Source of the DNA: an uncultured Alphaproteobacteria bacterium | GTDB lineage: Bacteria; Pseudomonadota; Alphaproteobacteria; HIMB59; GCA-002718135 | Reading direction: 5' to 3' | DNA length: 64,000 bases | Assembly: GCA_902560675.1 (NCBI GenBank) | Contig: CACEMP010000004.1 | Span: 2,678 to 66,677 of the forward strand | Shown here: positions 1,813 through 33,766 of the stretch, piece by piece | Position numbering within the stretch: the stretch's first letter is position 1 | Layout of the letters: each line of letters begins with the position of its first letter | Notes under the pieces: generated by a model | What the model saw: only the letters and a program-made list of their open reading frames with translations | What the model was told of the DNA's origin: nothing | Databases searched by the model: none | Translations under genes and position numbers: made by a program

Positions 1813-3450
1813 ATGAAAAAAACATTTGACTTTATAATAGCAGGAGGAGGTTCTGCTGGCTGTACATTAGCCTCAAGATTATCTGAAAATAAAGATATAA
1901 AGGTATTATTAATAGAAGCGGGGGGGTCAGGAAAAAGTTTATTCACTCAAATGCCCGGTGGTAACGGATACATTTTTGGAAACCCTAAATTTGATTGGGG
2001 TTTTGAGTCAATACCTCAACCTTCTTTAAATAATAGAAAAATCTTATACCCTAGAGGTAAAGGACTAGGAGGATCCTCTCTTTTAAACGGTATGATTTAC
2101 ATGAGAGGTGCTCCGGGTGATTTTAATAGGTGGAGACAAAAAGGCTTAGAGGGCTGGTCATATAATGATGTATTGCCATATTTCAAAAAATCTGCCTCAG
2201 CTTTTCATAGAGAAAAAAATGAATATCATTCACATTCAGGTCCTTTAAAACTTACACCAGCTGGTAATTACAATTCTATAGATAAAGCATTTATTGACGC
2301 ATGTGTTGAAGCTGGGGCAGAAATTAATAATGATTTTTACAATGGTAATCTAAATGGAGTAGGCCGATATGATGTTAAAGTATGGAATGGCAAAAGACAA
2401 TCATCTGCAGAAGCTTATTTGAAATTTAAACCTAGCAACTTAACAATTTATAAAAATACATCTGTAATAAAAATTTTAATTGAGAAAAATAAAGCTAAAG
2501 GATTACTTTTATCAAATGGTGAAGTTTATGCATCATCAGAGGTAATTTTATCTTTAGGAGCATTCGGTAGCCCCAAATGCTTAATGTTATCAGGAATCGG
2601 ACCAGAGGAACATTTAAAAGAAAAAAATATAGATTTATTAATTAATTTACCTGGAGTAGGTGAAAACCTTCACGATCATCCTGTTATGCCAATGAATTGG
2701 GCTTTTCAAAACAACAATTTAAGTTTCTCTAAATATCAAAGGATTGATAGAGCTATTATTGTTGGATTAAAATATATTTTATTCAAAAAGGGATTAGCTG
2801 CAGCTCCTTTTTGGTCAACAAATCTATTTCATGCAATAAGAGAAAAAGAAATGCCTGAAATACAAGTTTTCATGACACCTATGTGTTTTAAAGAAGAAAA
2901 AGATAACTGGTATATGAGTTTAGATAATTTATTAAATTTTGGTTCATTATTTTTTTCTAGAGGTAAAAAAGCTTTTCCAGGATTACACTTTCAAATAAAT
3001 TTATTAAGACCAAAGAGCACAGGAAGTGTAAAACTTAAAAGCTCAAATCCTAATGATGAACTTAATATAAATCCAAATTGGTTCATCGATCCATCTGATA
3101 TGGAAGATATGATCGAAGGAATGAAACATACAAGAGAAGTATTATCAAAACCCAGTTTAGCTAAAATTGTTTCAGAAGAATTACTTCCAGGAAAAAAAAA
3201 CAAAAGTGATCAAGATTTAAAAGAGTCAGTTCGAAATCATGTACAAACCGGCCATCATCCTGCATCTACTTGCGCAATGGGTTCAAGTAATAATAAAATG
3301 GCTGTACTTGATAATCAACTTAAAGTTAGAGGAATAGACAATCTTAGAGTAGTGGATGCTTCTTCTTTCCCAGATATGATAAGTGGTAATATAAATGCAT
3401 CTGTAATAATGTTAGCAGAAAAAGCATCAGATATGATATTAAAAAATTAA
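1813..3450 (+). CDS. GMC-family FAD oxidoreductase (choline/alcohol dehydrogenase-like)
   Basis: 545 aa. N-terminal FAD fold FDFIIAGGGSAGCTLASRLSE, GKGLGGSSLLNGMIY, and C-terminal HPASTCAMG...VVDASSFP active-site region. Confidence 0.85.
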   Translation: MKKTFDFIIAGGGSAGCTLASRLSENKDIKVLLIEAGGSGKSLFTQMPGGNGYIFGNPKFDWGFESIPQPSLNNRKILYPRGKGLGGSSLLNGMIYMRGAPGDFNRWRQKGLEGWSYNDVLPYFKKSASAFHREKNEYHSHSGPLKLTPAGNYNSIDKAFIDACVEAGAEINNDFYNGNLNGVGRYDVKVWNGKRQSSAEAYLKFKPSNLTIYKNTSVIKILIEKNKAKGLLLSNGEVYASSEVILSLGAFGSPKCLMLSGIGPEEHLKEKNIDLLINLPGVGENLHDHPVMPMNWAFQNNNLSFSKYQRIDRAIIVGLKYILFKKGLAAAPFWSTNLFHAIREKEMPEIQVFMTPMCFKEEKDNWYMSLDNLLNFGSLFFSRGKKAFPGLHFQINLLRPKSTGSVKLKSSNPNDELNINPNWFIDPSDMEDMIEGMKHTREVLSKPSLAKIVSEELLPGKKNKSDQDLKESVRNHVQTGHHPASTCAMGSSNNKMAVLDNQLKVRGIDNLRVVDASSFPDMISGNINASVIMLAEKASDMILKN

Positions 3451-3499: not shown

Positions 3500-4972
3500 A
3501 TGTCTGAAATTTATACTTACAAATTTTATGCAGGAAATAGATGGCATGAACCTTCTTCTGGAAAATATTTTGAAAGTGAGGATCCATCTATAGGAAAAGT
3601 ATGGGCAAGGGTCCCTGATTGTAATGAAAAAGATATTACTCTTGCAGTAACATCTGCTAAACATGCTTACTATGACGGTCCTTATGGTAAAATGCATCCA
3701 GCAGAAAGAGGAAGAATTCTAACTAGAATTGGAGATATAATTTCTAAAAATGCAGAACGTATTGGGCAAATAGAAACTAAAGATAACGGAAAACTTCCAA
3801 AAAATATTACTCCTTCTTTAACTAGCTGGCAAACTGAGAGTTTTTATTATTATGCAGGTATGTGTGACAAGTATGAAGGCAGATTAATACCTTCAGAAGT
3901 TCCAAATATGCATAATTATTTAAAATGGGAACCGTTTGGAGTTGTTGCACTTATTCTTCCTTGGAATTCGCCAATTGGAACATTAATCTGGAAATTAGCG
4001 CCAGCAATAGCAGCAGGCAATACTGTTGTAATAAAACCCTCAGAAAGAGCATCGTGCTCTACATTGGAATTAATGAAAATTTTAGAAGAAGCCGATCTAC
4101 CCGAAGGTTTGATTAATGTTGTTACTGGTTTTGGTCCTACCACTGGTGCGCCTCTTATTGAACATCAAGATGTTAGGATGATAAGTTTTACAGGTGGAAC
4201 AAAAGGGGGTAGTGCAGCAAGTTTAAGCGCATCTAAAAATGTTAAACCTATTATTATGGAGCTAGGAGGAAAATCACCACAAATTGTATTTAAAGACGCT
4301 GATTTAACTTTATCAGTAAATGGAGTTGTATCCGGAATCTTCCCAGTTTCAGGTCATAGTTGTATTTCAGGATCAAGGATACTAGTACATAAAGATATAA
4401 AAGATAAATTTACTCATAATTTATTAGAAGTTGTTAAAAGGGCTAAAGTTGGTCACCCAAATGATACTACAACACAAATTGGCCCTATAGCAAATAAAGA
4501 GCAATATGATTTTATTTTATCTAAGATAGAGGCTGCAGAAAAAAGAGGTTTAAAATTATTAATTGATGGAAGAAAAGATCAAAAATCTGAGGGATACTAC
4601 ATTGGTCCAACTATTTTTGATAATGTTCCAAATGAAGATGATTTAGCTCAAAATGAAGTATTTGGACCTGTCGCCTCAATTCAAACTTGGGATGATGAGG
4701 ATGAAGTAATTAAAATTGCAAACGATAGTATTTATGGTCTTGCAGCAGGTATTTGGACTAAGGATACTAATAAAGCTATACGATTAGCCGATAAGATAGA
4801 AGCCGGAACTGTTTATATAAATAATTATTTTAATGCATCTACTCAATCACCAGTTGGAGGCTTCAAGCAATCAGGATACGGTCGTGAAAATGGATGGGAG
4901 GGAATGCAAAGTTACATGCAGACTAAATCTACTTGGCTAGCTACCAATCCATCTCAACCAAACCCATTTTAA
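3500..4972 (+). CDS. NAD(P)-dependent aldehyde dehydrogenase (betaine-aldehyde dehydrogenase-like)
   Basis: 490 aa. It has the ALDH motifs LPWNSP, MELGGKSP (catalytic Glu) and GHSCISGSR (catalytic Cys). It lies directly downstream of the GMC oxidoreductase, in a betA-betB-like order. Confidence 0.85.
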   Translation: MSEIYTYKFYAGNRWHEPSSGKYFESEDPSIGKVWARVPDCNEKDITLAVTSAKHAYYDGPYGKMHPAERGRILTRIGDIISKNAERIGQIETKDNGKLPKNITPSLTSWQTESFYYYAGMCDKYEGRLIPSEVPNMHNYLKWEPFGVVALILPWNSPIGTLIWKLAPAIAAGNTVVIKPSERASCSTLELMKILEEADLPEGLINVVTGFGPTTGAPLIEHQDVRMISFTGGTKGGSAASLSASKNVKPIIMELGGKSPQIVFKDADLTLSVNGVVSGIFPVSGHSCISGSRILVHKDIKDKFTHNLLEVVKRAKVGHPNDTTTQIGPIANKEQYDFILSKIEAAEKRGLKLLIDGRKDQKSEGYYIGPTIFDNVPNEDDLAQNEVFGPVASIQTWDDEDEVIKIANDSIYGLAAGIWTKDTNKAIRLADKIEAGTVYINNYFNASTQSPVGGFKQSGYGRENGWEGMQSYMQTKSTWLATNPSQPNPF

Positions 4973-4979
4973 GAAGTAA

Positions 4980-5771
4980 TTATTCTTTCCAGTTTGGTTC
5001 TCTTTTTTCTAAAAAAGCTTCAATACCTTCCTTGGAATCATCATGTAACATATTTTCCGTCATTACCTTTGAAGTAAAAGTATATGCGTCTTCTAAATTC
5101 AAATCTTTTTGTTTGTAAAAAGCTTCTTTACCAATTTTAATAATATTAGAAGATTTAGAAGATATTTTTTTAGCAATTTGAAATACATTTTCTTTTAAAC
5201 TATCTTCTTCAAAGACATCATTTATTAAACCAATCCTCAATGCTTTATTTGCATCTATAAGATCTCCAGTGAGAAGCATTTCCATTGCTTGCTTTTTACC
5301 TACTGTTCTTGATAATGGAACCATTGGTGTAGAACAAAATAATCCAATATTAACACCAGGAGTTGCATATTTTGCTCTGCTACTTGAGTAAGCTAAATCA
5401 CAGCTAGAAATTAACTGACAGCCTGCTGCAGTAGCAATACCATCAACCATAGCTATAACTGGTTTATTATTTTTATTAATTTTCAGCATAAGTTGAGAGC
5501 ACATTTGAAATATTTTTTTAAAATAGCTTTCTCCTTTGTCATTTTGCAATCTTTGTGAATTTAAATCTTTTAAATTATGTCCTGCACAAAAAATGTTACC
5601 TTTTGATGATAAAATAATTACTCTTACATCATTATCTTTATCAGCAATGTCTAGCGCTGATGTTAATTCATTGATCATGTTTTCACTTAAAGTATTTTGG
5701 TTTTTCTGGTCATTAAGAATAATATTAAAAATATTATTATTTTTTTCGGTTAATATTAGATTAAAATTCAT
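4980..5771 (-). CDS. Enoyl-CoA hydratase/isomerase (crotonase) family protein, ECHDC3-like
   Basis: 263 aa with the crotonase oxyanion region FCAGHNLKD and VDGIATAAGCQL. It is the last gene of the minus-strand operon, with a 0-nt gap to the OsmC-like gene. Confidence 0.8.
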   Translation of the reverse strand: MNFNLILTEKNNNIFNIILNDQKNQNTLSENMINELTSALDIADKDNDVRVIILSSKGNIFCAGHNLKDLNSQRLQNDKGESYFKKIFQMCSQLMLKINKNNKPVIAMVDGIATAAGCQLISSCDLAYSSSRAKYATPGVNIGLFCSTPMVPLSRTVGKKQAMEMLLTGDLIDANKALRIGLINDVFEEDSLKENVFQIAKKISSKSSNIIKIGKEAFYKQKDLNLEDAYTFTSKVMTENMLHDDSKEGIEAFLEKREPNWKE

Positions 5772-6218
5772 TTAATTGATTTGAATTTCAACATCTTTAG
5801 ATAGTGAATTAGCGATAAAACAATACTTATGCGATCTCTCTTTCATCTTTTTCATTTCTTCATCAGAAATATTAAAATTATCTTCAAATAATATAGCTGG
5901 ATTTAGCTCTATTTTGTTGACGTACATTCTCCCCTCTGCATTTTTTCCTAAATACGAAATTGCTTTATCTTTATAATTAATAACTGGCCATTTCATTTTT
6001 GCAGCTAAAGCTAAGAATGTCATCATAAAACAACTACTTACAGCTGCAGCTAGTTTTTGTTCTGGATTAATATTAGTTTCGCTCCCTCCATAATCTGGAG
6101 ATGATCCCGCATCAATAGATACATTTTCGTTAAGTATTACTTTGTGATCAGTTAAATATTTTCCAAATTCGAGTTTTTGATCTCCTAACTCCCACTTTAA
6201 TTCGATTGAATGACTCAT
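5772..6218 (-). CDS. OsmC/Ohr-family protein
   Basis: The ORF-track frame is 5772..6266. I place the start at the internal Met (MSHSIELKWE...) at 6218 because the longer form would overlap the upstream gene by 47 nt, whereas the shorter form gives a TAAnATG junction. Size and pattern (..AAAVSSCFMMTF..SHKYCFIANS) fit OsmC. Confidence 0.7.
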   Translation of the reverse strand: MSHSIELKWELGDQKLEFGKYLTDHKVILNENVSIDAGSSPDYGGSETNINPEQKLAAAVSSCFMMTFLALAAKMKWPVINYKDKAISYLGKNAEGRMYVNKIELNPAILFEDNFNISDEEMKKMKERSHKYCFIANSLSKDVEIQIN

Positions 6219-6219
6219 T

Positions 6220-7341
6220 TTAAGAATAATTAAAAGGTAGTGAGCACACTTTACCTTTTCTCTCAATATTGTCTGGTGTTAATACGATAACATCCTGCCC
6301 TTCATTCCAATAATCTTTATCAACCATTGATAGCCCAATATTGGTTTTTAAAAATGGTGAATAAATGCCAGAGGTGATGTTACCAATTTGAAATCTATTT
6401 TTTGAGTATACAGGAAAAGGTATTGAGCACGGAGGAGTCGGGGATCCATCAAAAGTAATCCCTTTTATTTTTTTTTCTATTCCATTTTTTAATATTTTTT
6501 TTAATGCATTTTTTCCAATGAAATCATGAGATAAATTTTTACAATAATTATCAAATCCACATTCAATTGGATTATTTTCTAAAGTAAATTCATTACCATA
6601 GGATAATAAACCACCTTCTATTCTATCAATTAAATTTGGACATCCAGGTGAAATATTAAAATCTTTTCCTGCTTCCCAAATAGTTTCCCAAAGCTTTTTT
6701 CCTAAACTAAAACCTTTAAGATAAATCTCAAAACCATCTTGTTTGCTATATCCTGATCTTGCAATTATCTGCTTTGTTCCTTCAAATTCAAAAAAAGAAA
6801 AATGAAAGAATTTTAATTTTTTAATTTTTTCACCAAATATTGATGACATTAATTTTTCTGATTTTGGTCCTTGAATTGCTAGTGGGTAAATATCTGGTTC
6901 TATAATATCAACTTTAAAATTTCTTCCTACAGCCAATCCTTTTGCCCAAAGGAGAACATCTGAGTCTGCAACTGATAACCAATATTTATTTTCACTTAAT
7001 TTTAATAGTACTGGATCATTTATCATTCCTGCATTTTCATCAATCATTGGATAATAGTAACATTTACCAATAGGCATATCTTTTATTGATCTTGGAGACA
7101 TGAGTTGTATCAATTTTGTGGCATCCTCTCCTATTATTTGAACTTGTCGTTGACATGAAACATCCCAAATTTGAGTATCTTTAGATAAGTGCCAATAATC
7201 TTCTTCTACTGTTGCTTTATATGATTTTGGAAGGAGCATATGATTAACTACAGTAAAACCACTTACACCAGCTTCAATTACTTTCTCAGTATAGGGAGTT
7301 CTCCTAATACGTCTAGACATGTTTAATCCTGAATTACTCAT
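6220..7341 (-). CDS. dmdA: GcvT-fold, tetrahydrofolate-dependent aminomethyltransferase of the DmdA (DMSP demethylase) type
   Basis: The N-terminus SRRIRRTPYT..GVSGFTVVNHMLLP..IWDVSCQRQV and later ARSGYSKQDGFEIY and IEGGLLSYGNE match my memory of DmdA sequences much better than GcvT proper. I chose the start at the second Met (MSNSGLNMSRR), 1 nt after the upstream stop. The symbol is tentative, since this could be a paralogue. Confidence 0.55.
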   Translation of the reverse strand: MSNSGLNMSRRIRRTPYTEKVIEAGVSGFTVVNHMLLPKSYKATVEEDYWHLSKDTQIWDVSCQRQVQIIGEDATKLIQLMSPRSIKDMPIGKCYYYPMIDENAGMINDPVLLKLSENKYWLSVADSDVLLWAKGLAVGRNFKVDIIEPDIYPLAIQGPKSEKLMSSIFGEKIKKLKFFHFSFFEFEGTKQIIARSGYSKQDGFEIYLKGFSLGKKLWETIWEAGKDFNISPGCPNLIDRIEGGLLSYGNEFTLENNPIECGFDNYCKNLSHDFIGKNALKKILKNGIEKKIKGITFDGSPTPPCSIPFPVYSKNRFQIGNITSGIYSPFLKTNIGLSMVDKDYWNEGQDVIVLTPDNIERKGKVCSLPFNYS

Positions 7342-7342
7342 T

Positions 7343-7678
7343 TTATTTAGACCACCATATTGAGTACCCATTTGGAGAAATAATTAGAGGTATGTGATAT
7401 TTTTTAAGAGGATCTTTCATTTTAAATTTAACACTGATTGAATTAATTATTTCACTAGTATTTCTAAAATATTTACCAGAATTAATTATCATTTCATAAT
7501 CACTTTCACAATCTTCTTTCGTTAATTCAAATTCTTTGAGCATTCTTCCAGAACTATCTGTTTTTTCTTCTAAAAATACAACTTTGTTATTATTATTTTC
7601 TTTATAAATAACAATTTCTACATCACTTGCATGCGTACCATCTATTGAGTTTAGTAAATGTGTAGAAAAAATTGCCAT
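7343..7678 (-). CDS. Transthyretin-like protein (5-hydroxyisourate hydrolase family fold) with a non-canonical C-terminus
   Basis: 111 aa. The N-terminal STHLLNSIDGTHAS and C-terminal YHIPLIISPNGYS resemble the HIUase/TLP family, but the terminal tetrapeptide is WWSK rather than the YRGS that I recall as the HIUase signature. Confidence 0.7.
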   Translation of the reverse strand: MAIFSTHLLNSIDGTHASDVEIVIYKENNNNKVVFLEEKTDSSGRMLKEFELTKEDCESDYEMIINSGKYFRNTSEIINSISVKFKMKDPLKKYHIPLIISPNGYSIWWSK

Positions 7679-7681
7679 AAC

Positions 7682-9424
7682 TTACTCTATAGAAGCTTTA
7701 TCTCTTTTATCACTAACGGCAGCAACTATTGGACTTATAACACCTTTGGCTTTAACATTTACACATGCAGTTTTACCACTTTCTAACGCTCTTTTTAAAG
7801 CGGGGCCTAAATCTTCTCTTTTAGTAACTAATTCTCCATGCCCTCCAAAACCTTCAAAAATTGAATGAAATGGAATATCTCTAAAATCAGTTGCAAAGTG
7901 TTTCCCGCTTTCAAATAACCTTTCTTGTTGTTGAGAAATACAGTCAAGACCTCCATTATTATCTATAACAACAACAATAGGTTTTTTTTCTTGAAATGCA
8001 GCTTCAATTGACAATCCACCAGATAAAAATGCACCATCTCCACTTATTAAAACAACATTAGATTTAGGATTAAGATTTTTCGCTGATATTGCAAAAGGAA
8101 CTCCAACACCTAACATACTGAAAGTACCTGGGTGCAATATACCTCCAAGTTTTTTACCTTTTGATCCAGCAATATTAATCGCAATCTCAGACCAGAAATG
8201 TGTGTTACCACCATCAATAACCAACCAATCCTTTTCAGTTAATATTTCTTGAACATCTAAAGCTAACTGAAGAGGATGAATTTTTCCACCATTTTTTTTG
8301 GCCTCTTCAGTTTCTTTATTTAAGTCATCTAATGTTTTATCGATCCAATTTTTTTTCTCTTTTTTATTCTTATCAAACCATTCATTTTTCAATTTCCATT
8401 TACTGTTTTTCTTTAACTCAATGAGTTTATTAAAAAAGACTCCGGGATCACAAAGTAAGTTAATATCCGCAGCTCTATTTAATTCTATTTCTTCATGAGA
8501 TCCATTAATACAAACAAGCTTAGTACTTTTTGGAAAAAGTGGAGGATTACCAAAATTCATTTGATTATCAAGACGTGCACCAATCATAAGAACCAAATCT
8601 GATTCATGGAGAGCCATTTTTGATGGGGGATATTGATGAATATCTGCCAGACCCATGTATGTATCTGCCTCTTCCCCTAAAAGCTTTTGATGATATGGTA
8701 TATTAAATATTGGAATATTTAATTCAAAACCAGCTTGCTCCAATTTTTTTTCTGCATTAGACCACCAAACACCATGCCCTCCAATAAAAACTGGTTTTTT
8801 AGCATTAATTGCAAGATCAAATATTTCATTTAAACTCTCAGGATCGGGCCAAGCTTTGGCTAAAGGTTTTTTCTGATGAGTAAATGGCCTTTCTTCTAAA
8901 CCTGCATCATCTGCAAATGATGAAAACATTATATCTACTGGAACACTTAAATGTACTGCACCTGGATAACCATTTGTTGCAATTCTATAAGCTTTATCTA
9001 CGAACTCTCTTATTCTATTACCATCTGTTATACTGGCACTGTATTTTGTTAAAGGTGCTGCAATAGATACATCATCTATTTCCTTAAAACCGCCTGCTCC
9101 TTGTCTTTTTAAGCTGCTTGATCCAGTTAAAAAAATAACAGGGGATCTTTCACCCCAAGCTTCCATCATTGAAGGTACTGCATTTGCAAAACCTTCTGGT
9201 CCAACAATACAAACAGATGGTTTTCTTGATATTCTTGTGTGACCATCAGCTAAATGGCCAGCAATTTGTTCATGAGGACAATTAATTACATCAATTTGAC
9301 ACTCCATAAATCCTTCAAGTGCTGGATTACAAAAACCTCCAGAAAGTGTAAAAACATTATCAATACCTTTGTCTCTAAGAGCTCTTGCAACTAATGCCCC
9401 ACCTCTAATCTTTTTATCACCCAT
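7682..9424 (-). CDS. Thiamine-diphosphate-dependent enzyme (acetolactate synthase / oxalyl-CoA decarboxylase / 2-hydroxyacyl-CoA lyase superfamily); specificity unresolved
   Basis: 580 aa. It has an N-terminal Pyr domain with the catalytic-Glu context CPHEQIAGHLADG and a C-terminal PP-domain motif GDGAFLSGG...IDNNGG. A K/E-rich insertion lies around KKNSKWKLKNEWFDKNKKEKKN. Confidence 0.8.
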   Translation of the reverse strand: MGDKKIRGGALVARALRDKGIDNVFTLSGGFCNPALEGFMECQIDVINCPHEQIAGHLADGHTRISRKPSVCIVGPEGFANAVPSMMEAWGERSPVIFLTGSSSLKRQGAGGFKEIDDVSIAAPLTKYSASITDGNRIREFVDKAYRIATNGYPGAVHLSVPVDIMFSSFADDAGLEERPFTHQKKPLAKAWPDPESLNEIFDLAINAKKPVFIGGHGVWWSNAEKKLEQAGFELNIPIFNIPYHQKLLGEEADTYMGLADIHQYPPSKMALHESDLVLMIGARLDNQMNFGNPPLFPKSTKLVCINGSHEEIELNRAADINLLCDPGVFFNKLIELKKNSKWKLKNEWFDKNKKEKKNWIDKTLDDLNKETEEAKKNGGKIHPLQLALDVQEILTEKDWLVIDGGNTHFWSEIAINIAGSKGKKLGGILHPGTFSMLGVGVPFAISAKNLNPKSNVVLISGDGAFLSGGLSIEAAFQEKKPIVVVIDNNGGLDCISQQQERLFESGKHFATDFRDIPFHSIFEGFGGHGELVTKREDLGPALKRALESGKTACVNVKAKGVISPIVAAVSDKRDKASIE

Positions 9425-9425
9425 T

Positions 9426-10589
9426 TTAATACTTTATATCCTTAAAAAATTTCTCTGCTATAATTTTTTTATCAACTTCATTTATATCGGTTAATCCCAC
9501 TAAGCCAAGATTTGTACTTAACTCTTCTTTAATTAAGTTAATGATTCTTCTAAGACCTTTTGCGCCATCTGCACCAATGGCATACATTAGAGGTCTGCCA
9601 AACATAACAAAGTCAGCTCCCAGAGCTAACGCACGTAAAATATCACTACCACTTCTAATTCCACTATCAAAAAGTATTGGAAAATCGCCTCCCAAAGCTT
9701 TTCGTATTAATGGCAAAGCATTAATAGAAGCAGTAGCACTATCTAATTGTCTTCCACCATGATTTGATACTTGAACTGCATCAGCACCAGCATCTTTAAT
9801 TTTCAAAGCATCTTCAGAATTCATTACTCCTTTGATTATTAATTTTCCTTTCCAAGCGTCTCGAACCCTTTTTAGAGTATTCCAATCAGTTGCCCCTCTA
9901 CTTTCTTTTCGTCTAAAAACTTGATCACCACTTTTGGAGGTAACATAATTCATTGGTTGTGGAGCGCCTTTAAACAAAGTTGTTAAGCTCCATTGAGGAT
10001 GTAGTGCAAAATCTAAAAATTGTTTTGGGCCAATTTTAAATGGATAACCAAAGCCATTTCTATCATCTCTGGCTCTTCTTGAAAGAATAGGAACATCAAC
10101 AGTGAGAATTAAAACCTCATACCCTACGCCTTCTGCTCTTTTTAATAATTCCATAATAAATTCTTCACTTTGAAAAATATATATTTGCATCCACGAATGT
10201 CCTTCTGAAAAAGTAAACATATCTTCAAGCGTAGTACTAGAAGCCATTGAAACACATGTTGGAATATTATTATACGCACTTTCTTTTGCTATCATTTTAT
10301 CTGCTTCAGGCCATGAAAGATTTGTCATTCCCATTGGTGCAAATCCAAATGGATAATCAAAATGAAAATCAAATATTTTTTTACTTAAGTTTCTATTCTC
10401 GACATTTCTGAAAACCTTAGGTTCAAGTCTAATTTGATCTAATGCTTTACTATTAATTTCAGCAAGTTTATCATCTCCTGATGCTCCATCAATGAAATCA
10501 AAGACCAATTTTGGTAATCTCTTTTTTGATAACCTTATTGCATCATCTATTGTATGGATTTTATTGCTAGCTTTAATGAGATCATTCAT
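9426..10589 (-). CDS. FMN-dependent alpha-hydroxy acid dehydrogenase/oxidase (LldD / glycolate oxidase family)
   Basis: 387 aa with the family motifs LTVDVPILSRRARD, VSNHGGRQLD and FDSGIRSGSDILRALALGA. Confidence 0.85.
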   Translation of the reverse strand: MNDLIKASNKIHTIDDAIRLSKKRLPKLVFDFIDGASGDDKLAEINSKALDQIRLEPKVFRNVENRNLSKKIFDFHFDYPFGFAPMGMTNLSWPEADKMIAKESAYNNIPTCVSMASSTTLEDMFTFSEGHSWMQIYIFQSEEFIMELLKRAEGVGYEVLILTVDVPILSRRARDDRNGFGYPFKIGPKQFLDFALHPQWSLTTLFKGAPQPMNYVTSKSGDQVFRRKESRGATDWNTLKRVRDAWKGKLIIKGVMNSEDALKIKDAGADAVQVSNHGGRQLDSATASINALPLIRKALGGDFPILFDSGIRSGSDILRALALGADFVMFGRPLMYAIGADGAKGLRRIINLIKEELSTNLGLVGLTDINEVDKKIIAEKFFKDIKY

Positions 10590-10637
10590 TTTAATATTTG
10601 TATTCTAATATAATTTATAATTCTATTATAAAATATA

Positions 10638-11867
10638 CTAGTTTTTTGAAATACCTTTCCAAGGTATAGGGCTAGATGGAATATCCTCTTTCAAACCTCT
10701 TTGTATTTCGCCTTTCTCATCATACATTGGTAAAGTACAAATTTCACCTTTTTGCAGACTACCATCATCACAACTAACATCTACTATTGTGTCTGGTCCA
10801 AATTTTGCATTATCCATATGAACTATAGCAACACCACAAACTTGAAATGGGGACCATGTACTTGAAGTTACAATTCCAACTTTTTTATTATTAATAGAAA
10901 TTTCAGAATCAACCAACGCAAAGCTATTTTCCACTCTCATACCCCATGTTAAACAATCTTTGCTTGCATTTAGTAAATAATCTTTTCCAATAAAATCCCC
11001 TTTATTAAAATCTATAAATTTTCCTAATCCAACAGCAAATGGAGATCTGTCTCTTGTAAAATCTCTCCCTGCAGATAAGAGACCTGCCTCAATTCTTCTA
11101 CATCTAAATCCTGGTGAGGCTGTTAAGATCATTCCCATTTCTTCGCCTTTACTGAGTATTAAGTCTCCAATTTTTTTTGAATCATTTTCTGGTCTTAAAT
11201 AAATTTCCCAACCCAGTTCATTCGTAAACCCTGTTCTACTTATAATTACTTTTTCTGAAGCAATTGAAGTTTCAATCCAATCAAAGTAATTAAAATTATT
11301 TTTTAATGGTTGATCAATTAGTTTTTCTAACAGTTTTAGAGATTTAGGTCCTTGTATTTGACTTACCCAAACATTTGGATCTTTAATTTCAACATCTAAA
11401 TTTTTCGAATGAGCTTTGTACCAACTGTATAAATGTCCATCACCTTGAGCAAACCAAAATTTATTTTTTTCTAATCTCAATAATAATCCATCTGAAATCA
11501 TCCCTCCATCATGGTAGCATGCAAATTGATAGGAGCATCGTCCTATTTTTACTTTTGAAATATCTCTAGGAAATATTTGTTGAAGTAAATTTTCAGCATC
11601 TGGTCCAGATATTTCGTATGGATGTTCACCTGTATGACGTAAAATTATTTCTTGTCTAGCTTTCCAATACATTTCATCTGCTGTAGCATGAGATAATTTT
11701 TCAAGTGTAAATCTCCCATCAGCGTAGTTAGTATATTCTGGGTTGAGTGGTAACTCCTGATAAGTAAGAGGATGTATTTTCATGGGTCTAGCCAAATCTA
11801 GAGATCTACCAGTTTCTTTAATAACTGGCTTTACAACAAATCTGTAATTACTAACTAAATCTCCCAT
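10638..11867 (-). CDS. GcvT-like folate-binding aminomethyltransferase/demethylase family protein (second paralogue, longer N-terminus)
   Basis: 409 aa. It shows the pattern EISGPDAENLLQ..CYHDGGMISDGLLLRL..IQGPKS..SRTGFTNELGWEIY..IEAGLLSAG, typical of GcvT/DmdA/LigM-type THF-dependent methyl transferases. Confidence 0.7.
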   Translation of the reverse strand: MGDLVSNYRFVVKPVIKETGRSLDLARPMKIHPLTYQELPLNPEYTNYADGRFTLEKLSHATADEMYWKARQEIILRHTGEHPYEISGPDAENLLQQIFPRDISKVKIGRCSYQFACYHDGGMISDGLLLRLEKNKFWFAQGDGHLYSWYKAHSKNLDVEIKDPNVWVSQIQGPKSLKLLEKLIDQPLKNNFNYFDWIETSIASEKVIISRTGFTNELGWEIYLRPENDSKKIGDLILSKGEEMGMILTASPGFRCRRIEAGLLSAGRDFTRDRSPFAVGLGKFIDFNKGDFIGKDYLLNASKDCLTWGMRVENSFALVDSEISINNKKVGIVTSSTWSPFQVCGVAIVHMDNAKFGPDTIVDVSCDDGSLQKGEICTLPMYDEKGEIQRGLKEDIPSSPIPWKGISKN

Positions 11868-11908
11868 AAAATTTATTCAACTTATCACAAAATAATGAAA
11901 AAAAAATT

Positions 11909-12832
11909 TTAAAATAAATTCTTAATAGCTTCAATATGTCGTGGCTTTACCTCACAGCATCCACCAACTAGAGTAACACCTTCATTTAATGAATTTAAAA
12001 CAAACTTTTTATATTTTTCTTCTCCAAATTCTTCATTTCGAGTTCCAAGTAACTCTACGGGATCAATATAATCATAATGTCCTTCAAAACCTTCTGAATT
12101 AAATTTTTCTTCATTACTAGTAGGCAATTCTTTAAATAAATTCATTTTATAACCAAAAGGAAGCTTTTGTTTATTAAACATAGGAATACTCAAATTAACA
12201 ATTTCAGGTGATACGCAGGCAGATACTATGCCACAACAATCAAATTTTTGAATAGTTTCAAAAAGTTCATCAAGACTTTCTCCAGATGGTAATTTTCCAT
12301 CGTAACGTAAGTGTACACCTACAAGAACTTGTTTATTAAATTCTTGTGAAGCTTCTAAAGCAATTTTTATTTCTTTGATGGAACACAAAACATCTAAGTA
12401 AAAAATGTCGACGTAATCTTTTAATATTTTTGCAATTTCATGAAAATAATTAAACATGGTTTCATCAGTTTCAAAATGTATTGGGGAATATGTATTACCT
12501 TGATTTGGCAATGAGCCTGCAACAATAACTTTTTTATCACTTTCATTTTTTGCTTTTAATGCTAGTGCTCCAGCAGATTGTATTCCAAATTCAAATCTAT
12601 CAAGTAAATTATATTTTTTTAATAGTCTTCTTCTAACACTAAAATTTGAAGTAACGATTAATTGTGATCCTGCATTTATAAAATTTTTGTGCATTTCTAC
12701 TACCATTGGGTGATTATTTTCATCTAATAAAGCTTGTGCAGACCAAAGATCACCGGTTGTTTCTAAACCCATTTCCATTAAAGTTTGACCTGAACCTCCA
12801 TCAAAGAGATATTTCTTATTTTTTAAAAACAT
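11909..12832 (-). CDS. Homocysteine S-methyltransferase-domain protein (betaine-homocysteine methyltransferase-like)
   Basis: 307 aa. It has an N-terminal DGGSGQTL, a Cys in ACVSPE plus GGCCEV (the Zn-binding Cys triad pattern of the Pfam S-methyl_trans family). Confidence 0.75.
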   Translation of the reverse strand: MFLKNKKYLFDGGSGQTLMEMGLETTGDLWSAQALLDENNHPMVVEMHKNFINAGSQLIVTSNFSVRRRLLKKYNLLDRFEFGIQSAGALALKAKNESDKKVIVAGSLPNQGNTYSPIHFETDETMFNYFHEIAKILKDYVDIFYLDVLCSIKEIKIALEASQEFNKQVLVGVHLRYDGKLPSGESLDELFETIQKFDCCGIVSACVSPEIVNLSIPMFNKQKLPFGYKMNLFKELPTSNEEKFNSEGFEGHYDYIDPVELLGTRNEEFGEEKYKKFVLNSLNEGVTLVGGCCEVKPRHIEAIKNLF

Positions 12833-12850: not shown

Positions 12851-12881
12851 GAAAAAGTGTGGCGCATTTAAATGCGCCACA
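12851..12881 (-). terminator. Rho-independent terminator (probably partial) after the SBP gene
   Basis: A perfect 24-nt palindrome TGTGGCGCATTTAAATGCGCCACA sits at 12858..12881. On the minus strand it is followed by C-TTTTT-CC. It begins 16 nt downstream of the SBP stop codon. Confidence 0.7.
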
Positions 12882-12896
12882 AAGAAAATTAATATT

Positions 12897-14525
12897 TTAT
12901 GCAAACCACCAACGTTCAGAAAGTTTGTTACCATCACTTTCCCAGTTACCAGCAACATCTTCACCGTGCGCAAGTTTTTTAGAACCAGCACCAACATATT
13001 GGTTAAATGCATAGACAATTGCACCACCATCGTAGTTACAAAGAGCTTGTGCTTCCCAGTACATTGATTTTCTTTTTTCTGCATCAAGTTCTGATCTAGC
13101 AGCTCTAACAAGTTCATTGAAACGAACAGTTGAATCAGTTTGAACTAGATTACCCCAAGCAGCTTCATTCCACTCAGTATCATCTGTGAATGCAGCAGAC
13201 CACATCATATCTTCTGTAGGTCTTCCACCCCAAGAACTCATACTGAAACCTTTAGTGTTCCATACGTTACTCCAGTAACCATCTTCTGGTTCTTTTTTAA
13301 CTCGAAGATCGATACCACATTCTTGAGCAGATGCTGCTATTAAGTTAGTTGCATCTGTACATCCTGCATAAGGAACCTCAGAAGTACTAATTTCAATTGG
13401 TCCACTTACTCCAGATTTTTTCCAGTGATAAGCAGCTTTATCAGCATCGAACTCTCTCTGCTCTAAAGCATTGTTGTGGTAAGGGTGAGCAGTTGAGATC
13501 GGGTGATCATTACCAACTGTTCCATATCCTAGCATTATCTTATCAACAATTTCTTGTCTTTTGATTGCAAACTTCATTGCCATACGAACATCAAAATTAT
13601 CAAATGGCGGCACATTTAATCTCATTGGAGCTGTATAATGTGCATATCCAGATGCTGCAGTAATTTCAACATTTGGATCTCTTGTTAGTAAATTTGCAGT
13701 TCTTAAGTCAACACCGTTCATCCAGTCTATTTCACCATTCAATAATGCCGCTTGTCTAGTAGCAGGATCATTAATTCCGATTACTTCAACTGAATCAAAG
13801 TGTGCAACACTATCACCTTTGAAATAATTTGGATTTCTTTTTCCAAATTTTGCTCCAACACCTGGATTAAATTCATCCATAATGTAAGGACCAGTTCCAA
13901 CAGTAGATTGAGCATCAACAACTCCATCTTTTGTTGGTTTAATCATAATGTGATAGTCAGTAGTTATTGCAGGCCAGTCAGCGTTTGCACCTTTTAGCTT
14001 GAAAATAACTCTATCATTTCCATCAGCAGAAATTGTATCAATTTGAGATAACAACCCACCTGCTGCTGAAGCGGTGTCTGGATTCATGTGATACTGATAG
14101 TTAAGTACAACGTCTTCTGCAGTCATTGATTTTCCATTATGGAATTCAACTCCTTTACGAAGATTATATACCCAAGTTTGAGCATCATCAGATTCAATTG
14201 ACTCAGCAAGCTCTCCAACAATAGTATGGTCTGAGTCAACAACCGTTAAACAGTTTTGATATGACCAAGCTGTAGCTTGCATGAATGAACTTTGATAAGT
14301 TGCAGGATCAAGTGTATCTGTAGTATCAGCTGCACCATTACCCCATCTTAAATGTCCGCCTTTTTTTGGAGTAGCAGCAACAGCTTTATCAGCGAGTGAT
14401 AGTGCTATTGGTAAAGTTACACCAGTTGCAAGAACAGACATCATGAACTGTCTTCTGTCAATTAGCCCTTTAGTGAGCTTTGAAGACTGCTCTTTAATAT
14501 ATTTGTCTATTTTCTTATCTTTCAT
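12897..14525 (-). CDS. ABC transporter substrate-binding protein, family 5 (peptide/opine/nickel, DppA/OppA-like) with a Tat-like signal peptide
   Basis: 542 aa. The signal is IDRRQFMMSVLATGVTLPIALSLADKAVA-AT, and a strong RBS (GGGAGGACAAATG) precedes the start. GC content is noticeably higher than in neighbouring genes (about 38% in the lines I counted by hand). Confidence 0.85.
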   Translation of the reverse strand: MKDKKIDKYIKEQSSKLTKGLIDRRQFMMSVLATGVTLPIALSLADKAVAATPKKGGHLRWGNGAADTTDTLDPATYQSSFMQATAWSYQNCLTVVDSDHTIVGELAESIESDDAQTWVYNLRKGVEFHNGKSMTAEDVVLNYQYHMNPDTASAAGGLLSQIDTISADGNDRVIFKLKGANADWPAITTDYHIMIKPTKDGVVDAQSTVGTGPYIMDEFNPGVGAKFGKRNPNYFKGDSVAHFDSVEVIGINDPATRQAALLNGEIDWMNGVDLRTANLLTRDPNVEITAASGYAHYTAPMRLNVPPFDNFDVRMAMKFAIKRQEIVDKIMLGYGTVGNDHPISTAHPYHNNALEQREFDADKAAYHWKKSGVSGPIEISTSEVPYAGCTDATNLIAASAQECGIDLRVKKEPEDGYWSNVWNTKGFSMSSWGGRPTEDMMWSAAFTDDTEWNEAAWGNLVQTDSTVRFNELVRAARSELDAEKRKSMYWEAQALCNYDGGAIVYAFNQYVGAGSKKLAHGEDVAGNWESDGNKLSERWWFA

Positions 14526-14716: not shown

Positions 14717-15715
14717 ATTAGCCAAATTCACCCAATATTTAGAACAATTTTTTTAAGAATTGGCCTTGGATTAATTACTGTATTCGCTTTTTCAGTAATT
14801 ATTTTTAGCTGTTTTTCTTTTTTGCCAGGAGATTTTGCAACTGAGATTCTAGGACAATCAGCTACAAAATCGTCCGTAGAGGCCCTTAGATCAGAATTAG
14901 GTTTAGATAAACATCCAATCCCAAGATATTTCGAATGGTTGTCCAATGTATTTCAGGGAGATTTTGGAAGTTCTTTCTCAGGCAGATCAAAAGTACAAGG
15001 TGATCAAGGTGATAGATCAAGACTTGTTGTGGAACTAATTATTCCCAGACTCAAAAATACACTTTTTTTAACCGGAGTAAGTGCTCTTGTAGCTATTCCA
15101 CTGGCATTACTTCTAGGTATTTCAGCTGCCTTATACAGAAATAGTGTTTACGATAGATCGGCAACTGGTTTTAGTTTAATTACTGTTTCTTCTCCCGAGT
15201 TTTTTACTGGATATATTTTTATTCTTTTATTAGCTACCTTGTTTCCAGTTTTTCCTACTATAGCAAATGTCAATGAGGACACATCCTTAATTGATAGGTT
15301 TTATTTAACTGCTTTACCTGTTTTTACTTTAACGCTTGTAACAATGGGTCATATGATGAGAATGACTCGATCTGCAATAATCAATATTTTATCAAGTGAA
15401 TATATCGAAATGGCAAAATTATCTGGCGCTACCAGATATGAAGTAATTGTGAAACATGCTTTGCCTAATGCTTGGGCTCCAATTGCTCAAGTAATAACTA
15501 TAAATCTTGCCTACATGTTAATTGGTTCAGTTGTTGTCGAGTTTGTATTTAATTATCAAGGCATAGGAAGATTAATGGTTGGATCCGTTTATAATAGAGA
15601 TATTCCTGTTGTTCAGGCTTGCGCTTTAATATTTGCATCAACTTACGTTATATTAAATTTACTAGCTGATTTAATTGGCATAATTTCAAACCCTAGACTT
15701 TTGTATCCTAAATGA
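14717..15715 (+). CDS. ABC transporter permease (DppB/OppB-like), proposed non-canonical ATT start
   Basis: The ORF track starts at TTG 14822 (MPGDFATEILGQ), which would delete the first TM helix that normally precedes the LPGD motif. The frame is open back to the TAG at 14705. It contains no ATG, GTG or TTG, but ATT at 14717 lies 5 nt after AGGAGG (14706..14711). The extension reads ISQIHPIFRTIFLRIGLGLITVFAFSVIIFSCFSF. Confidence 0.7.
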   Translation: MSQIHPIFRTIFLRIGLGLITVFAFSVIIFSCFSFLPGDFATEILGQSATKSSVEALRSELGLDKHPIPRYFEWLSNVFQGDFGSSFSGRSKVQGDQGDRSRLVVELIIPRLKNTLFLTGVSALVAIPLALLLGISAALYRNSVYDRSATGFSLITVSSPEFFTGYIFILLLATLFPVFPTIANVNEDTSLIDRFYLTALPVFTLTLVTMGHMMRMTRSAIINILSSEYIEMAKLSGATRYEVIVKHALPNAWAPIAQVITINLAYMLIGSVVVEFVFNYQGIGRLMVGSVYNRDIPVVQACALIFASTYVILNLLADLIGIISNPRLLYPK

Positions 15716-16635
15716 GTGAAAATACACAATCATATTCAGCAAAAGGTGAAGTTAGTAATATAACTAAAAGAAGAACTAGATTTGAAAGAATTAAAATAGC
15801 ATTTTCTAAAGCTCCTTTATCTGCTTGGTTTGGAATGATTGTTCTTTCTATCTATCTTATTGCTGCATTTTTTGCTCCTTTTATTGCGCCACATGGTGAG
15901 GCTGAAGTTTTCCCAGTAGCATATGCGCCATGGGGTGGAGAACACTTATTAGGAACAGATCAAATTGGAAGAGATATTCTTTCTAGATTAATATTTGCTT
16001 CAAGAAATACACTAGGAATTTGTTTTTTAGCCTGTACCATTGCTTTATTTATAGGAACAATATTTGGAATAATTGCTGCAATAGATAGAAGTTACATTGA
16101 TCAAATTTTAAGTAGATCTATTGATACTTTAATGGCAATTCCCGTAATGATTTTTACTTTTATACTTTTATCTGTTTTTGGGCCAAGTAACTTAAACTTA
16201 ATTTTAATTCTAGGGGTATTAGAATCAACGAGGTTTTTTAGAATTTCAAGATCTGTAGCTGTTGGTCAAGTTGTATTAGAATATGTTGAGGTAGCTAAAT
16301 TAAGAGGAGAAAAACTTTCTTATATAATTTTTAGAGAAATTTTACCAAATATAGCATCTCCACTAATCGTAGAATTTGGAGTGAGATTCATTTTTATTAT
16401 TTTCACAGTTTCAAGTTTAAGTTTTTTAGGCTTAGGAATTCAACCGCCAGCTGCTGATTGGGCTGCAATGGTTAGAGAAAATGCAATTTTAATTCAATAT
16501 GCCCAATATGATATTACTGCAGGATTAACACCACTAATACCTGCTGCAATAATTGCTTTATTAGCTCTTGCAATTAATTTTGTTATTGATTGGTATTTAT
16601 ACATAACAAGCGGATTAAAAGATGACATCAAATAA
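15712..16635 (+). CDS. ABC transporter permease (DppC/OppC-like)
   Basis: 307 aa with multiple TM segments. It has an ATGA overlap with the upstream permease and the family motif region EYVEVAKLRGEK. Confidence 0.85.
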   Translation: MSENTQSYSAKGEVSNITKRRTRFERIKIAFSKAPLSAWFGMIVLSIYLIAAFFAPFIAPHGEAEVFPVAYAPWGGEHLLGTDQIGRDILSRLIFASRNTLGICFLACTIALFIGTIFGIIAAIDRSYIDQILSRSIDTLMAIPVMIFTFILLSVFGPSNLNLILILGVLESTRFFRISRSVAVGQVVLEYVEVAKLRGEKLSYIIFREILPNIASPLIVEFGVRFIFIIFTVSSLSFLGLGIQPPAADWAAMVRENAILIQYAQYDITAGLTPLIPAAIIALLALAINFVIDWYLYITSGLKDDIK

Positions 16636-21257: not shown

Positions 21258-21275
21258 TTTGTAAATTTTGTAAAT
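21258..21275. promoter_or_regulatory. Right operator candidate: perfect tandem TTTGTAAAT x2 overlapping the regulator start codon
   Basis: TTTGTAAATTTTGTAAAT spans 21258..21275 and the ATG is at 21274. This mirrors the left site about 75 bp away. The core resembles the TTTGCAAA motif that I recall for RamB/PrpR-family regulators. Confidence 0.45.
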
Positions 21276-23717: not shown

Positions 23718-23719
23718 AT

Positions 23720-24649: not shown

Positions 24650-24650
24650 A

Positions 24651-28481: not shown

Positions 28482-28521
28482 TTTATTTTATTTAATGTAT
28501 TTTATATTTAGGAGGGGAATA

Positions 28522-29568: not shown

Positions 29569-29584
29569 AAAATATACTTCAATT

Positions 29585-29616
29585 CAGCACTAATATATTA
29601 ATATTAGTGCTGTTTT
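29585..29616 (+). terminator. Intra-operon rho-independent terminator/attenuator between the SBP and ATPase genes
   Basis: A perfect 12-bp stem CAGCACTAATAT / ATATTAGTGCTG with an ATTA loop is followed by TTTT. It ends 4 nt before the potG-like start. Confidence 0.7.
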
Positions 29617-29619
29617 AAG

Positions 29620-33716: not shown

Positions 33717-33766
33717 ATTGAGACTGTTTGTTTACTAATTATAATTAAACCATTAATGATAAGTAG

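Follow-up and report, generated by a model that had tools for sequence, protein, structure and literature searches.

We describe here a conserved gene module found in a 64,000-nucleotide stretch of DNA (hereafter the window) from an uncultured alphaproteobacterium (positions 2,678 to 66,677 of contig CACEMP010000004.1, assembly GCA_902560675.1). At its centre are genes for a flavin mononucleotide (FMN)-dependent 2-hydroxyacid enzyme, a thiamine diphosphate (ThDP) enzyme and a transthyretin-like protein (TLP), usually followed by a gene of the family of the dimethylsulfoniopropionate (DMSP) demethylase DmdA. The order of these genes is constant among the SAR11 loci that we counted, and the trio recurs in Alpha- and Gammaproteobacteria of other orders. 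We tentatively propose, at somewhat less than even confidence, that the module serves the catabolism of an imported methylated organosulfur 2-hydroxy-carboxylate, for which 4-dimethylsulfonio-2-hydroxybutyrate (DMSHB) or a close analogue would be the best candidate. A literature search found no paper describing this gene combination.

In the window, the module is part of a row of eight minus-strand open reading frames (ORFs) that run head-to-tail from position 12832 down to 4980:

11909-12832, minus strand: homocysteine S-methyltransferase resembling BHMT and MmuM (PF02574, 137 bits)
10638-11867, minus strand: GcvT-fold protein of 409 aa (PF01571 and PF08669)
9426-10589, minus strand: FMN-dependent L-2-hydroxyacid dehydrogenase, predicted, core (PF01070, 395 bits)
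7682-9424, minus strand: novel ThDP enzyme, core (three ThDP domains)
7343-7678, minus strand: TLP of the 'WWS' subtype, 111 aa, core (PF00576, 71 bits)
6220-7341, minus strand: DmdA-family tetrahydrofolate (THF) methyltransferase, predicted, 373 aa (PF01571 and PF08669; NF009133, 533 bits against a cutoff of 410)
5772-6218, minus strand: two-cysteine protein of the OsmC/Ohr family, accessory (PF02566, 56 bits)
4980-5771, minus strand: crotonase/enoyl-CoA hydratase, accessory (NF006008, 367 bits against a cutoff of 313)

A preliminary description of this DNA had recognized the eight-gene row, and the ORF coordinates bear out both its extent and the gaps of 41, 48, 1, 3, 1, 1 and 0 nt between successive genes, while the TAAnATG junctions that it placed at 7342 and 6219 read directly as TAAaATG. 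All eight of its family assignments hold in Pfam and NCBIfam searches. Its preference for the shorter starts at 7341 and 6218 is backed by orthologues: the DmdA-type proteins of Pelagibius and Arenicellales have the N-terminus ..SGL.MSRR.RRTPYT, the same as that encoded from 7341, and the Phaeobacter OsmC gene measures 450 nt against 447 nt in the window, stop included. The tight spacing of the eight genes is not beyond chance for this genome. Elsewhere in the window, whose G+C content is ∼30%, most co-directional neighbours also lie 0–40 nt apart or overlap. The arrangement is non-trivial because its core is conserved across lineages, not because of its spacing.

Using the ThDP protein as a query, with one genome per species, at least 562 close relatives were found, of which the best 80 loci were examined. 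These come from Pelagibacterales single-cell and metagenome-assembled genomes, with one contig labelled Rhodobacterales. Together with four loci from protein look-ups, they were matched against the window proteins, and the SAR11 loci of at least 15 kb, 67 in number, were counted (individual loci are denoted below by L and a number). The order GcvT-like, FMN, ThDP, TLP, DmdA-type is kept in 67 of 67, with differing flanks. The exact eight-gene set is confined to the subclade of the window itself (26 of 67 loci), which is also the only one in which the OsmC and crotonase genes lie beside the cluster, and the BHMT-like gene is present in 31 of the 67, in some subclades only, at 46–97% identity. 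In most other subclades, an S51 peptidase gene lies between the GcvT-like and FMN genes, a thiolase gene follows DmdA, and a different family-5 substrate-binding protein (SBP5) is encoded divergently. Thus, the synteny expected in the preliminary description is found for the five central genes but not for the octet as one indivisible set, the genes for the BHMT-like protein, OsmC, the crotonase and a nearby aldehyde dehydrogenase (ALDH) being accessory and limited to subclades. The eight-gene set is a lineage-specific assembly of a conserved core, a recurring DmdA-OsmC-crotonase unit and optional methyl-harvesting or aldehyde-oxidizing genes.

Two variants were seen along the way. On the contig labelled 'uncultured Rhodobacterales' (L076), the cluster copy is SAR11-like, with a ThDP enzyme of 83% identity and a substrate-binding protein (SBP) of only 51% identity to that of the window; mis-binning of the contig or a third variant of the transporter may lie behind this. 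Seven SAR11 loci carry a 242-aa SBP_bac_3-like gene on the opposite strand between the GcvT-like and S51 peptidase genes, among them L046 (7372-8100, minus strand), L040, L047, L049, L050 and L052. For strain HTCC1062, the four aminomethyltransferases and their neighbours have been described (PMC3160333), from which we infer that the module is absent as a block from that genome.

Members outside SAR11 were reached by using a ThDP relative of 48% identity as the query and comparing the neighbourhoods of the named organisms that it returned. In Pelagibius sp., the row FMN-ThDP-TLP-DmdA adjoins a tripartite ATP-independent periplasmic (TRAP) transporter and a LysR gene; in Arenicellales, a D-2-hydroxyacid dehydrogenase gene lies directly upstream of the same row; and in a genome of 63% GC (L095), the row follows an SBP5 ATP-binding cassette (ABC) transporter. 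Two further lineages, represented by three loci (L096 and L099/L100), have LysR, TRAP and FMN-ThDP-TLP with no adjoining DmdA gene, so that all SAR11 loci and three of the five non-SAR11 lineages have a DmdA-family gene after the trio. These carriers are Alpha- and Gammaproteobacteria of other orders, non-streamlined, with 49–65% GC and different transporters, and in several of their loci the FMN gene shares a 4-nt overlap with the ThDP gene. Compared with the window, their ThDP enzymes show 67–72% identity, their FMN enzymes 43–54% and their TLPs 27–34%; the far better conservation of the ThDP enzyme relative to its operon partners would reflect either an unusually strong constraint or a recent transfer. 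Among the loci examined, the GcvT-like gene stands beside the core in SAR11 only, and MttB-family genes lie near the cluster in L093 and L095. No xsc, pta, cuyA or recognizable sulfite exporter gene adjoins the trio in the contexts read; a gene for a SulP-type sulfate transporter lies ∼5 kb from the trio in L096. The minimal conserved unit is therefore a transporter plus FMN-ThDP-TLP, to which a DmdA-family gene is usually attached.

The ThDP enzyme scores below the cutoff of each of its 25 best NCBIfam models, the highest value being 271 bits against 587 for the 'acetolactate synthase' PRK05858. The corresponding values are 236 against 600 for 2-hydroxyacyl-CoA lyase (HACL), 202 against 557 for oxalyl-CoA decarboxylase (OXC), 189 against 620 for Xsc, and at most 271 against at least 509 for acetolactate synthase (ALS). 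Its closest solved structures are those of 2-hydroxyacyl-CoA lyase/synthase, oxalyl-CoA decarboxylase and benzaldehyde lyase (BAL), at 160–189 bits, whereas glyoxylate carboligase structures match weakly and partially (94 bits). Among 1.84 billion representative proteins, only three full-length clusters exceed 33% identity (68%, 48% and 36%). It is thus an isolated family, related to the HACL/OXC/BAL branch. A search for orthologues on plasmids gave none above 30% identity. The 48% relative P0123 (on JGI contig 3300056388) is surrounded by genes for a short-chain dehydrogenase/reductase (SDR), a 4HBT thioesterase, a split transketolase and a TauA/NMT1-type ABC system; with neither FMN enzyme nor TLP nearby, this neighbourhood represents a different, likewise uncharacterized pathway and was set aside.

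The TLP reaches 71 bits with the hydroxyisourate (HIU) hydrolase model TIGR02962, whose cutoff is 87.45. Its STH.., ..GR.. and YHIPL motifs, which hold the His/Arg/His residues, align with the HIU hydrolases of E. coli, Salmonella and B. subtilis. The C-terminus differs: in the window, it reads ..GYSIWWSK, and WWS[KQES] replaces YRGS in all copies from SAR11 loci and in two non-SAR11 copies (Pelagibius and Arenicellales).

The FMN enzyme falls short of the LldD models (NF033901, 228 against 550 bits; PRK11197, 271 against 376). Its closest homologues found outside SAR11, at 48–50% identity, are encoded on Roseobacter plasmids by the last gene of hpsKLM-hpsNOP-comDE clusters; from this hps/comDE context, we read these genes as slcD, for sulfolactate dehydrogenase, for which no curated model exists. 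The cluster enzyme is accordingly placed, by sequence, as a probable sister group of SlcD. An HPxWSLxTL insert is common to both, and the catalytic Tyr/Asp/Arg/Lys/His/Arg residues are kept in the alignment. Residues specific to SlcD, namely the His of PHG and RHGF, are replaced, and a conserved Trp appears; in addition, Tyr24 is Phe in most cluster copies and a small residue occupies GOX position 108. At the GOX-79 position, the enzyme has Gly, where oxidases carry Ala, and in this it is dehydrogenase-like (cf. mandelate dehydrogenase); (S)-mandelate dehydrogenase is among its best solved-structure matches (239 bits). The 'oxidase' of the preliminary description looks more like a quinone-linked dehydrogenase. 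The logic by which a 2-hydroxyacid would become a 2-oxoacid and then the substrate of the ThDP enzyme has a precedent in the FMN homologues that adjoin comDE, which encode sulfopyruvate decarboxylase. The D-2-hydroxyacid dehydrogenase gene at the head of the Arenicellales row also speaks for this logic. Two specificities that had been named as arguing against the preliminary proposal, lactate for the FMN enzyme and glyoxylate for the ThDP enzyme, are not indicated, considering that the LldD cutoffs are not reached and that glyoxylate carboligase is missing from the 25 best ThDP models.

With NF009133 (cutoff 410), the DmdA-family protein of the window scores 533 bits and cluster copies elsewhere 537–580 bits, compared with 637 for HTCC1062 DmdA and 600 for P. 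inhibens DmdA. The protein is 48% identical to HTCC1062 DmdA (3tfh) and 45–47% identical to Roseobacter DmdA, which in turn share 42–44% with one another. A distance-based neighbour-joining tree of 14 sequences, which carries no support value, shows a trichotomy of cluster, HTCC1062 and Roseobacter types; in this tree, a separate clade unites the cluster copies of SAR11, Pelagibius and Arenicellales, and a DmdA-like protein of Phaeobacter lies outside the DmdA group. An ordinary glycine-cleavage T protein, the alternative raised in the preliminary description for both GcvT-fold proteins of the row, is ruled out here by scores of 136 against 236 (TIGR00528) and 160 against 300 (PRK00389), and no gcvH or gcvP was seen among the cluster-flanking genes or the other window ORFs scanned. 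The HTCC1062-type dmdA is a separate, abundant lineage (80–94% identity) whose context, wherever it was read, consists of genes for an acyl-CoA dehydrogenase, an AMP-binding ligase and a hydrolase, then dmdA, adjoining asd, with sdh genes beyond asd where the contig extends. Among the window ORFs scanned, there is neither an AMP-binding ligase nor an acyl-CoA dehydrogenase (dmdB/dmdC). We conclude that SAR11 appears to have two DmdA lineages in two fixed contexts. The listed assemblies with HTCC1062-type and with cluster-type dmdA do not overlap, which decides nothing on whether one genome can hold both. The cluster protein has Tyr where HTCC1062 DmdA has its DMSP-contact Trp (W171); this was considered as a sign of a non-DMSP enzyme and dropped, since the motif RSGYSKQGGFE is shared by the canonical DmdA of Phaeobacter, encoded in a dmdC-D-B-A row.

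For the 409-aa GcvT-fold protein, ordinary GcvT is again excluded (107 against 236 bits with TIGR00528; 135 against 300 with PRK00389). Its best partial matches, the Tdm C-terminal domain (182 bits) and DmdA (177 bits), are all below cutoff, its identity to DmdA is 27–29%, and it has an invariant R[ST]GF[ST]NELGWE motif; it is neither GcvT nor DmdA. Plasmids of Phaeobacter and Tritonibacter carry orthologues of 57% identity without the core, next to genes for LysR and GlxA-type regulators. In P. inhibens pP66_d (L085, 10964-25185) and in L086, the orthologue stands alone between LysR and GlxA-type (GbdR-like) regulator genes, with genes for an ALDH, a TRAP transporter, a crotonase, an AMP-binding ligase and a molybdopterin S/N-oxide reductase nearby, a context that may represent another uncharacterized demethylation route. 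The BHMT-like protein scores 86 bits against 215 with the MmuM model and 84 against 338 with the BHMT model; a GGCC motif and an upstream Cys were seen by eye.

The last two genes of the row also have a parallel on a plasmid. P. inhibens pP51_d (L092, 5338-10078) carries a row of Lrp, DmdA-like, OsmC, enoyl-CoA hydratase and acyl-CoA synthetase genes, in which OsmC and the crotonase are 49 and 51% identical to those of the window. The triad of DmdA-family protein, OsmC and crotonase is thus a recurring unit and not an accident. OsmC of the window, which scores below the cutoffs of the subfamily models, has its two Cys residues in ..SSCF.. and ..KYCF... With the pP51_d row and the bhmT-osmC operon described for HTCC1062 (PMC5069961), OsmC is repeatedly tied to methyl-sulfur genes. 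The DmdD-like step assigned to the crotonase in the preliminary description is not upheld: the protein shares only 24% identity with the P. inhibens dmdD product and instead passes the generic hydratase model NF006008.

The row is flanked by transport and oxidoreductase genes, and by one possible RNA signal:

12858-12881, minus strand: hairpin rich in G+C, GTGGCGCAT-ttaa-ATGCGCCAC, its T-tract weak, in the spacer that separates the SBP gene from the first enzyme gene
12897-14525, minus strand: family-5 SBP (peptide/opine/nickel type) with a Tat-like signal peptide (PF00496, 227 bits)
14822-15715, 15712-16635 and 16622-18235, plus strand: three genes transcribed away from the SBP gene, for two ABC permeases and a fused double ATPase
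1813-3450, plus strand: choline-dehydrogenase-like GMC oxidoreductase (PRK02106, 515 bits against a cutoff of 605)
3500-4972, plus strand: betaine-aldehyde-dehydrogenase-like ALDH (betaine aldehyde dehydrogenase (BADH) model, 459 bits against a cutoff of 669)

The SBP gene and the hairpin, both mentioned in the preliminary description, are present upstream of the row. The hairpin has a 10-bp stem with six G-C pairs (−16.9 kcal/mol), which is kept in all type-A loci, even with a different flanking spacer, and is likely a partial terminator or an mRNA-stabilizing stem. Other terminator-like sites lie inside coding sequence, and their total count is at chance level. A promoter scan was uninformative (54 sites, with 54.8 expected), and an Rfam scan of the window for riboswitches (for S-adenosylmethionine or others), such as the bhmT-osmC operon of HTCC1062 has, returned one tRNA only. 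At the other end of the row, the ALDH and crotonase genes are convergent and end 7 nt apart (4973-4979), which is too short for a terminator between them.

The SBP reaches no NCBIfam cutoff. The permease and ATPase genes are conserved at 82–100% identity in the window's subclade and in L002-4, their orthologues match BPD_transp_1 and ABC_tran plus oligo_HPY in Pfam, and they probably encode the importer of the module. In the other SAR11 subclades and in L095, a different SBP5, of ∼30% identity to the window SBP, lies beside the same enzymes, and the SBP5 of the 63% GC genome is 59% identical to the majority SAR11 form. Searches of solved structures with the SBP5 and TRAP binding proteins gave generic matches only (NikA/GsiB/AppA-like for SBP5) and no clue to the ligand. 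The GMC and ALDH genes, convergent with the row in the window, are kept in L002-4 on the other side of the cluster; subclades other than that of the window and its nearest relatives lack them.

From this gene content, these family placements and this co-conservation, we infer the following route, in its steps, their order and its substrate. A binding-protein-dependent importer (SBP5-type ABC here, TRAP in other bacteria) would take the compound in. The DmdA-family enzyme would move the S-methyl group to THF, the GcvT-like enzyme presumably acting likewise in SAR11, and the BHMT-like enzyme would transfer a methyl group to homocysteine. The SlcD-like FMN dehydrogenase would then convert the C2 hydroxyl to a 2-oxo acid, passing electrons to the respiratory chain, and the ThDP enzyme would decarboxylate or cleave the 2-oxo acid to an aldehyde one carbon shorter, following the logic of mandelate dehydrogenase with benzoylformate decarboxylase or of SlcD with sulfopyruvate decarboxylase. 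The WWS-type TLP, derived from HIU hydrolase, may perform a hydrolytic or handling step on an onium-bearing intermediate. Lineage-specific genes would finish the route (ALDH and OsmC-crotonase here, thiolase in most other SAR11); by analogy, the Phaeobacter row of DmdA-like, OsmC, enoyl-CoA hydratase and acyl-CoA synthetase genes favours finishing at the CoA level. With DMSHB, the example given in the preliminary description and the best fit, as the substrate, two courses can be envisaged: it could be demethylated to 2-hydroxy-4-methylthiobutyrate and then oxidized to the keto acid of methionine, or it could be oxidized and decarboxylated to DMSP-aldehyde and carried on to DMSP for DmdA. In its families, in the co-conservation of the central genes and in the passage from hydroxyacid to ThDP enzyme, this agrees with the preliminary interpretation; it departs from it in the unity of the eight genes, the DmdD-like crotonase and the oxidase.

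A methyl-onium hydroxy acid, most likely a sulfonium, is suggested because a DmdA-family enzyme is fixedly attached and because methylated-osmolyte genes surround the module in several lineages. In the window, these are the BHMT-like gene, the GMC/BADH-like pair and carnitine-dehydrogenase-like and BKACE genes further on; elsewhere, they are the MttB-family genes of L093 and L095 and the GlxA-type regulator beside the GcvT-like orthologue on Phaeobacter plasmids. The loss of the SlcD His residues with the gain of a Trp in the FMN enzyme, together with the change from YRGS to WWS in the TLP, would be compatible with a cationic head group and hints weakly at an onium rather than a sulfonate substrate.

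Several points weigh against a DMSHB-like substrate. FMN-dependent 2-hydroxyacid enzymes are L-specific. The algal compound is, as Summers et al. 1998 are said to have found, the D enantiomer. An SBP5 or TRAP importer would be an unusual carrier for DMSP-type zwitterions, and the ALDH that a non-oxidative decarboxylation would call for does not belong to the conserved core. The nearest structures of the ThDP enzyme act on CoA esters or aromatic acyloins, not on free aliphatic 2-oxo acids, and the part played by the TLP finds no explanation. The trio stands without an adjoining DmdA gene in three loci from two lineages, and it may be that the cluster DmdA is just a demethylase of DMSP under common regulation with a trio to which it is unrelated.

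This last point leads to the rival that survives best, which we regard as unlikely: the module would combine two independent functions, the trio degrading a sulfonate 2-hydroxy acid, for example (R)-sulfolactate, and DmdA being an ordinary DMSP demethylase in the same operon. The SlcD-like dehydrogenase would yield sulfopyruvate, and the ThDP enzyme would replace ComDE or decarboxylate and desulfonate at once. TRAP carriers are typical for sulfonates, and the trio with TRAP and LysR in L096 and L099/L100 fits this division, as do the shared insert and 48–50% identity that link the FMN enzyme to its probable sister group SlcD and the passing score of the cluster DmdA. Xsc does appear among the ThDP enzyme matches, but far under cutoff (189 against 620); no xsc, pta, cuyA or recognizable sulfite exporter adjoins the trio in the contexts read, where the SulP gene of L096 is the only related finding; and the His residues specific to SlcD are replaced. 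Moreover, DmdA directly after the trio in all SAR11 loci and in three of five other lineages is beyond what shared regulation would need, and the TLP is left without a role here too.

Rather improbable, in our view, is a trio that oxidizes lactate, glycerate or glycolate and continues with an acetolactate-synthase or carboligase reaction, the methyl-removal genes being unrelated neighbours. SAR11 uses small organic acids, and the best curated match of the FMN enzyme is indeed L-lactate dehydrogenase, that of the ThDP enzyme PRK05858 ('acetolactate synthase'), each at 271 bits; all of these models, however, are well under their cutoffs (376, 550 and 587), and the match to glyoxylate carboligase structures is weak and partial. 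Two features of the FMN enzyme, its small residue at GOX position 108 and its SlcD-like insert, would point to a larger, substituted substrate, and for lactate one would hardly expect a high-affinity importer and a TLP dedicated to it.

Adjacency with no common pathway, arising from compact and highly syntenic genomes, is very improbable. SAR11 genomes are noted for conserved gene order, tight spacing is the rule throughout the window, and the outer genes (BHMT-like, OsmC, crotonase and ALDH) vary among subclades; the core nevertheless persists while the flanks change, the module seems from PMC3160333 to be absent as a block from HTCC1062, and the row FMN-ThDP-TLP(-DmdA) occurs in non-streamlined genomes of 49–65% GC from other orders with different transporters. 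This conservation across classes has largely refuted accidental adjacency already. Finally, that the TLP is a true HIU hydrolase in a cluster tied to the breakdown of purines or ureides, with glyoxylate passed on to a ThDP carboligase, is hardly credible and was rejected: it could draw on the PF00576 match, on HIU hydrolase as the best named match and on the retained His/Arg/His, but YRGS is replaced by WWS in every copy, TIGR02962 is not reached (71 against 87) and no uricase, OHCU decarboxylase or allantoinase gene lies in the neighbourhoods read.

Further genes of the window are recorded here for completeness. Directly after the ABC ATPase gene, at 18507-20875 (plus strand), are an SDR gene (∼74% identity within the window's subclade) and a second GMC (choline-dehydrogenase-like) oxidoreductase gene. 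A carnitine-type trio follows at 22710-25541 (minus strand), comprising BKACE (24651-25541), a carnitine-dehydrogenase-like 3HCDH (23720-24649; 323 bits against a cutoff of 414) and an MDR alcohol dehydrogenase, and is adjoined by a ScfR-type regulator gene (HTH-Peptidase_M78-ScfRs; 21274-22713, plus strand); the trio fits the quaternary-amine theme of the region. The block at 26644-35089 concerns polyamines, with agmatine deiminase, an N-carbamoylputrescine amidase-like CN hydrolase and an SBP_bac_8 ABC transporter, and continues with a glutamine-synthetase-like gene and a DAO oxidoreductase gene that form a PuuA/PuuB-like pair.

Bacteria of the SAR11 group are the most numerous heterotrophs of the surface ocean and depend on reduced organic sulfur, and dmdA serves as the marker gene for estimating how much DMSP sulfur is kept from becoming dimethyl sulfide. 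The families encoded by the module are all known; what is new is a widespread, uncharacterized variant of organosulfur or osmolyte catabolism built around DmdA. Its second DmdA lineage passes the annotation threshold, occurs in hundreds of SAR11 species and belongs to a conserved module with three other enzymes, not with dmdB/dmdC. In a stronger form of the proposal, which is doubtful, FMN-ThDP-TLP(WWS) and the second DmdA would constitute a hitherto unknown pathway by which SAR11 and other marine bacteria turn a sulfonium hydroxy acid from phytoplankton (e.g. DMSHB) into DMSP, methylmercaptopropionate (MMPA) or a methionine precursor, with the cluster 'DmdA' specialized for this compound and not for DMSP, and the TLP rebuilt from a hydrolase of purine catabolism as an onium-binding enzyme; counts of 'dmdA' in the ocean would then mix two functions. 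If the module consumes another algal sulfonium or sulfonate, phytoplankton and SAR11 would be tied together in sulfur and one-carbon cycling in a new way, environmental dmdA counts would need rereading, and two new enzyme activities would be gained, one from the isolated ThDP family and one from an HIU-hydrolase fold with a new pocket.

Compared with known systems, the module resembles several in part. With the 5-hydroxyisourate hydrolases PucM/HiuH, the TLP shares fold, length and the His/Arg/His active-site residues, whereas its WWS[KQES] in place of YRGS, its sub-cutoff score and a setting free of purine-catabolic genes set it apart. The pP51_d row has the same order of DmdA-family, OsmC and crotonase genes, but its DmdA-like protein, at 40% identity and with 365 bits short of the 410 that DmdA requires, is a more distant paralogue, and it includes an acyl-CoA synthetase, absent here, and no FMN/ThDP/TLP trio. 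In the dmdA-B-C-D systems (Ruegeria and Phaeobacter, and the dmdC-dmdB-hydrolase-dmdA arrangement of HTCC1062), there is likewise a GcvT-fold THF methyltransferase that passes the DmdA model, and the crotonase after DmdA in the window's subclade recalls the position of DmdD in the Roseobacter row; the DmdA lineage here is a separate one, and the window genes scanned include neither dmdB nor dmdC.

The mandelate pathway (FMN dehydrogenase MdlB, benzoylformate decarboxylase MdlC, aldehyde dehydrogenase MdlD) offers the succession proposed here, of 2-hydroxy acid, 2-oxo acid, aldehyde and acid. It differs in that there is no sign of an aromatic substrate here, the ALDH lies outside the conserved core, and the ThDP enzyme is nearer to HACL/OXC/BAL than to benzoylformate decarboxylase. 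From the Roseobacter pathway for 2,3-dihydroxypropane-1-sulfonate (DHPS) and sulfolactate (hpsKLM-hpsNOP-comDE-slcD), the module is distinguished by a 580-aa ALS/HACL-type ThDP partner where that pathway has the split ComDE, by the lack of hps genes, by the replaced SlcD His residues and by the attached TLP and DmdA; the two nevertheless have in common what is probably the same FMN subfamily, a ThDP partner that would act on a 2-oxoacid and a dedicated binding-protein importer.

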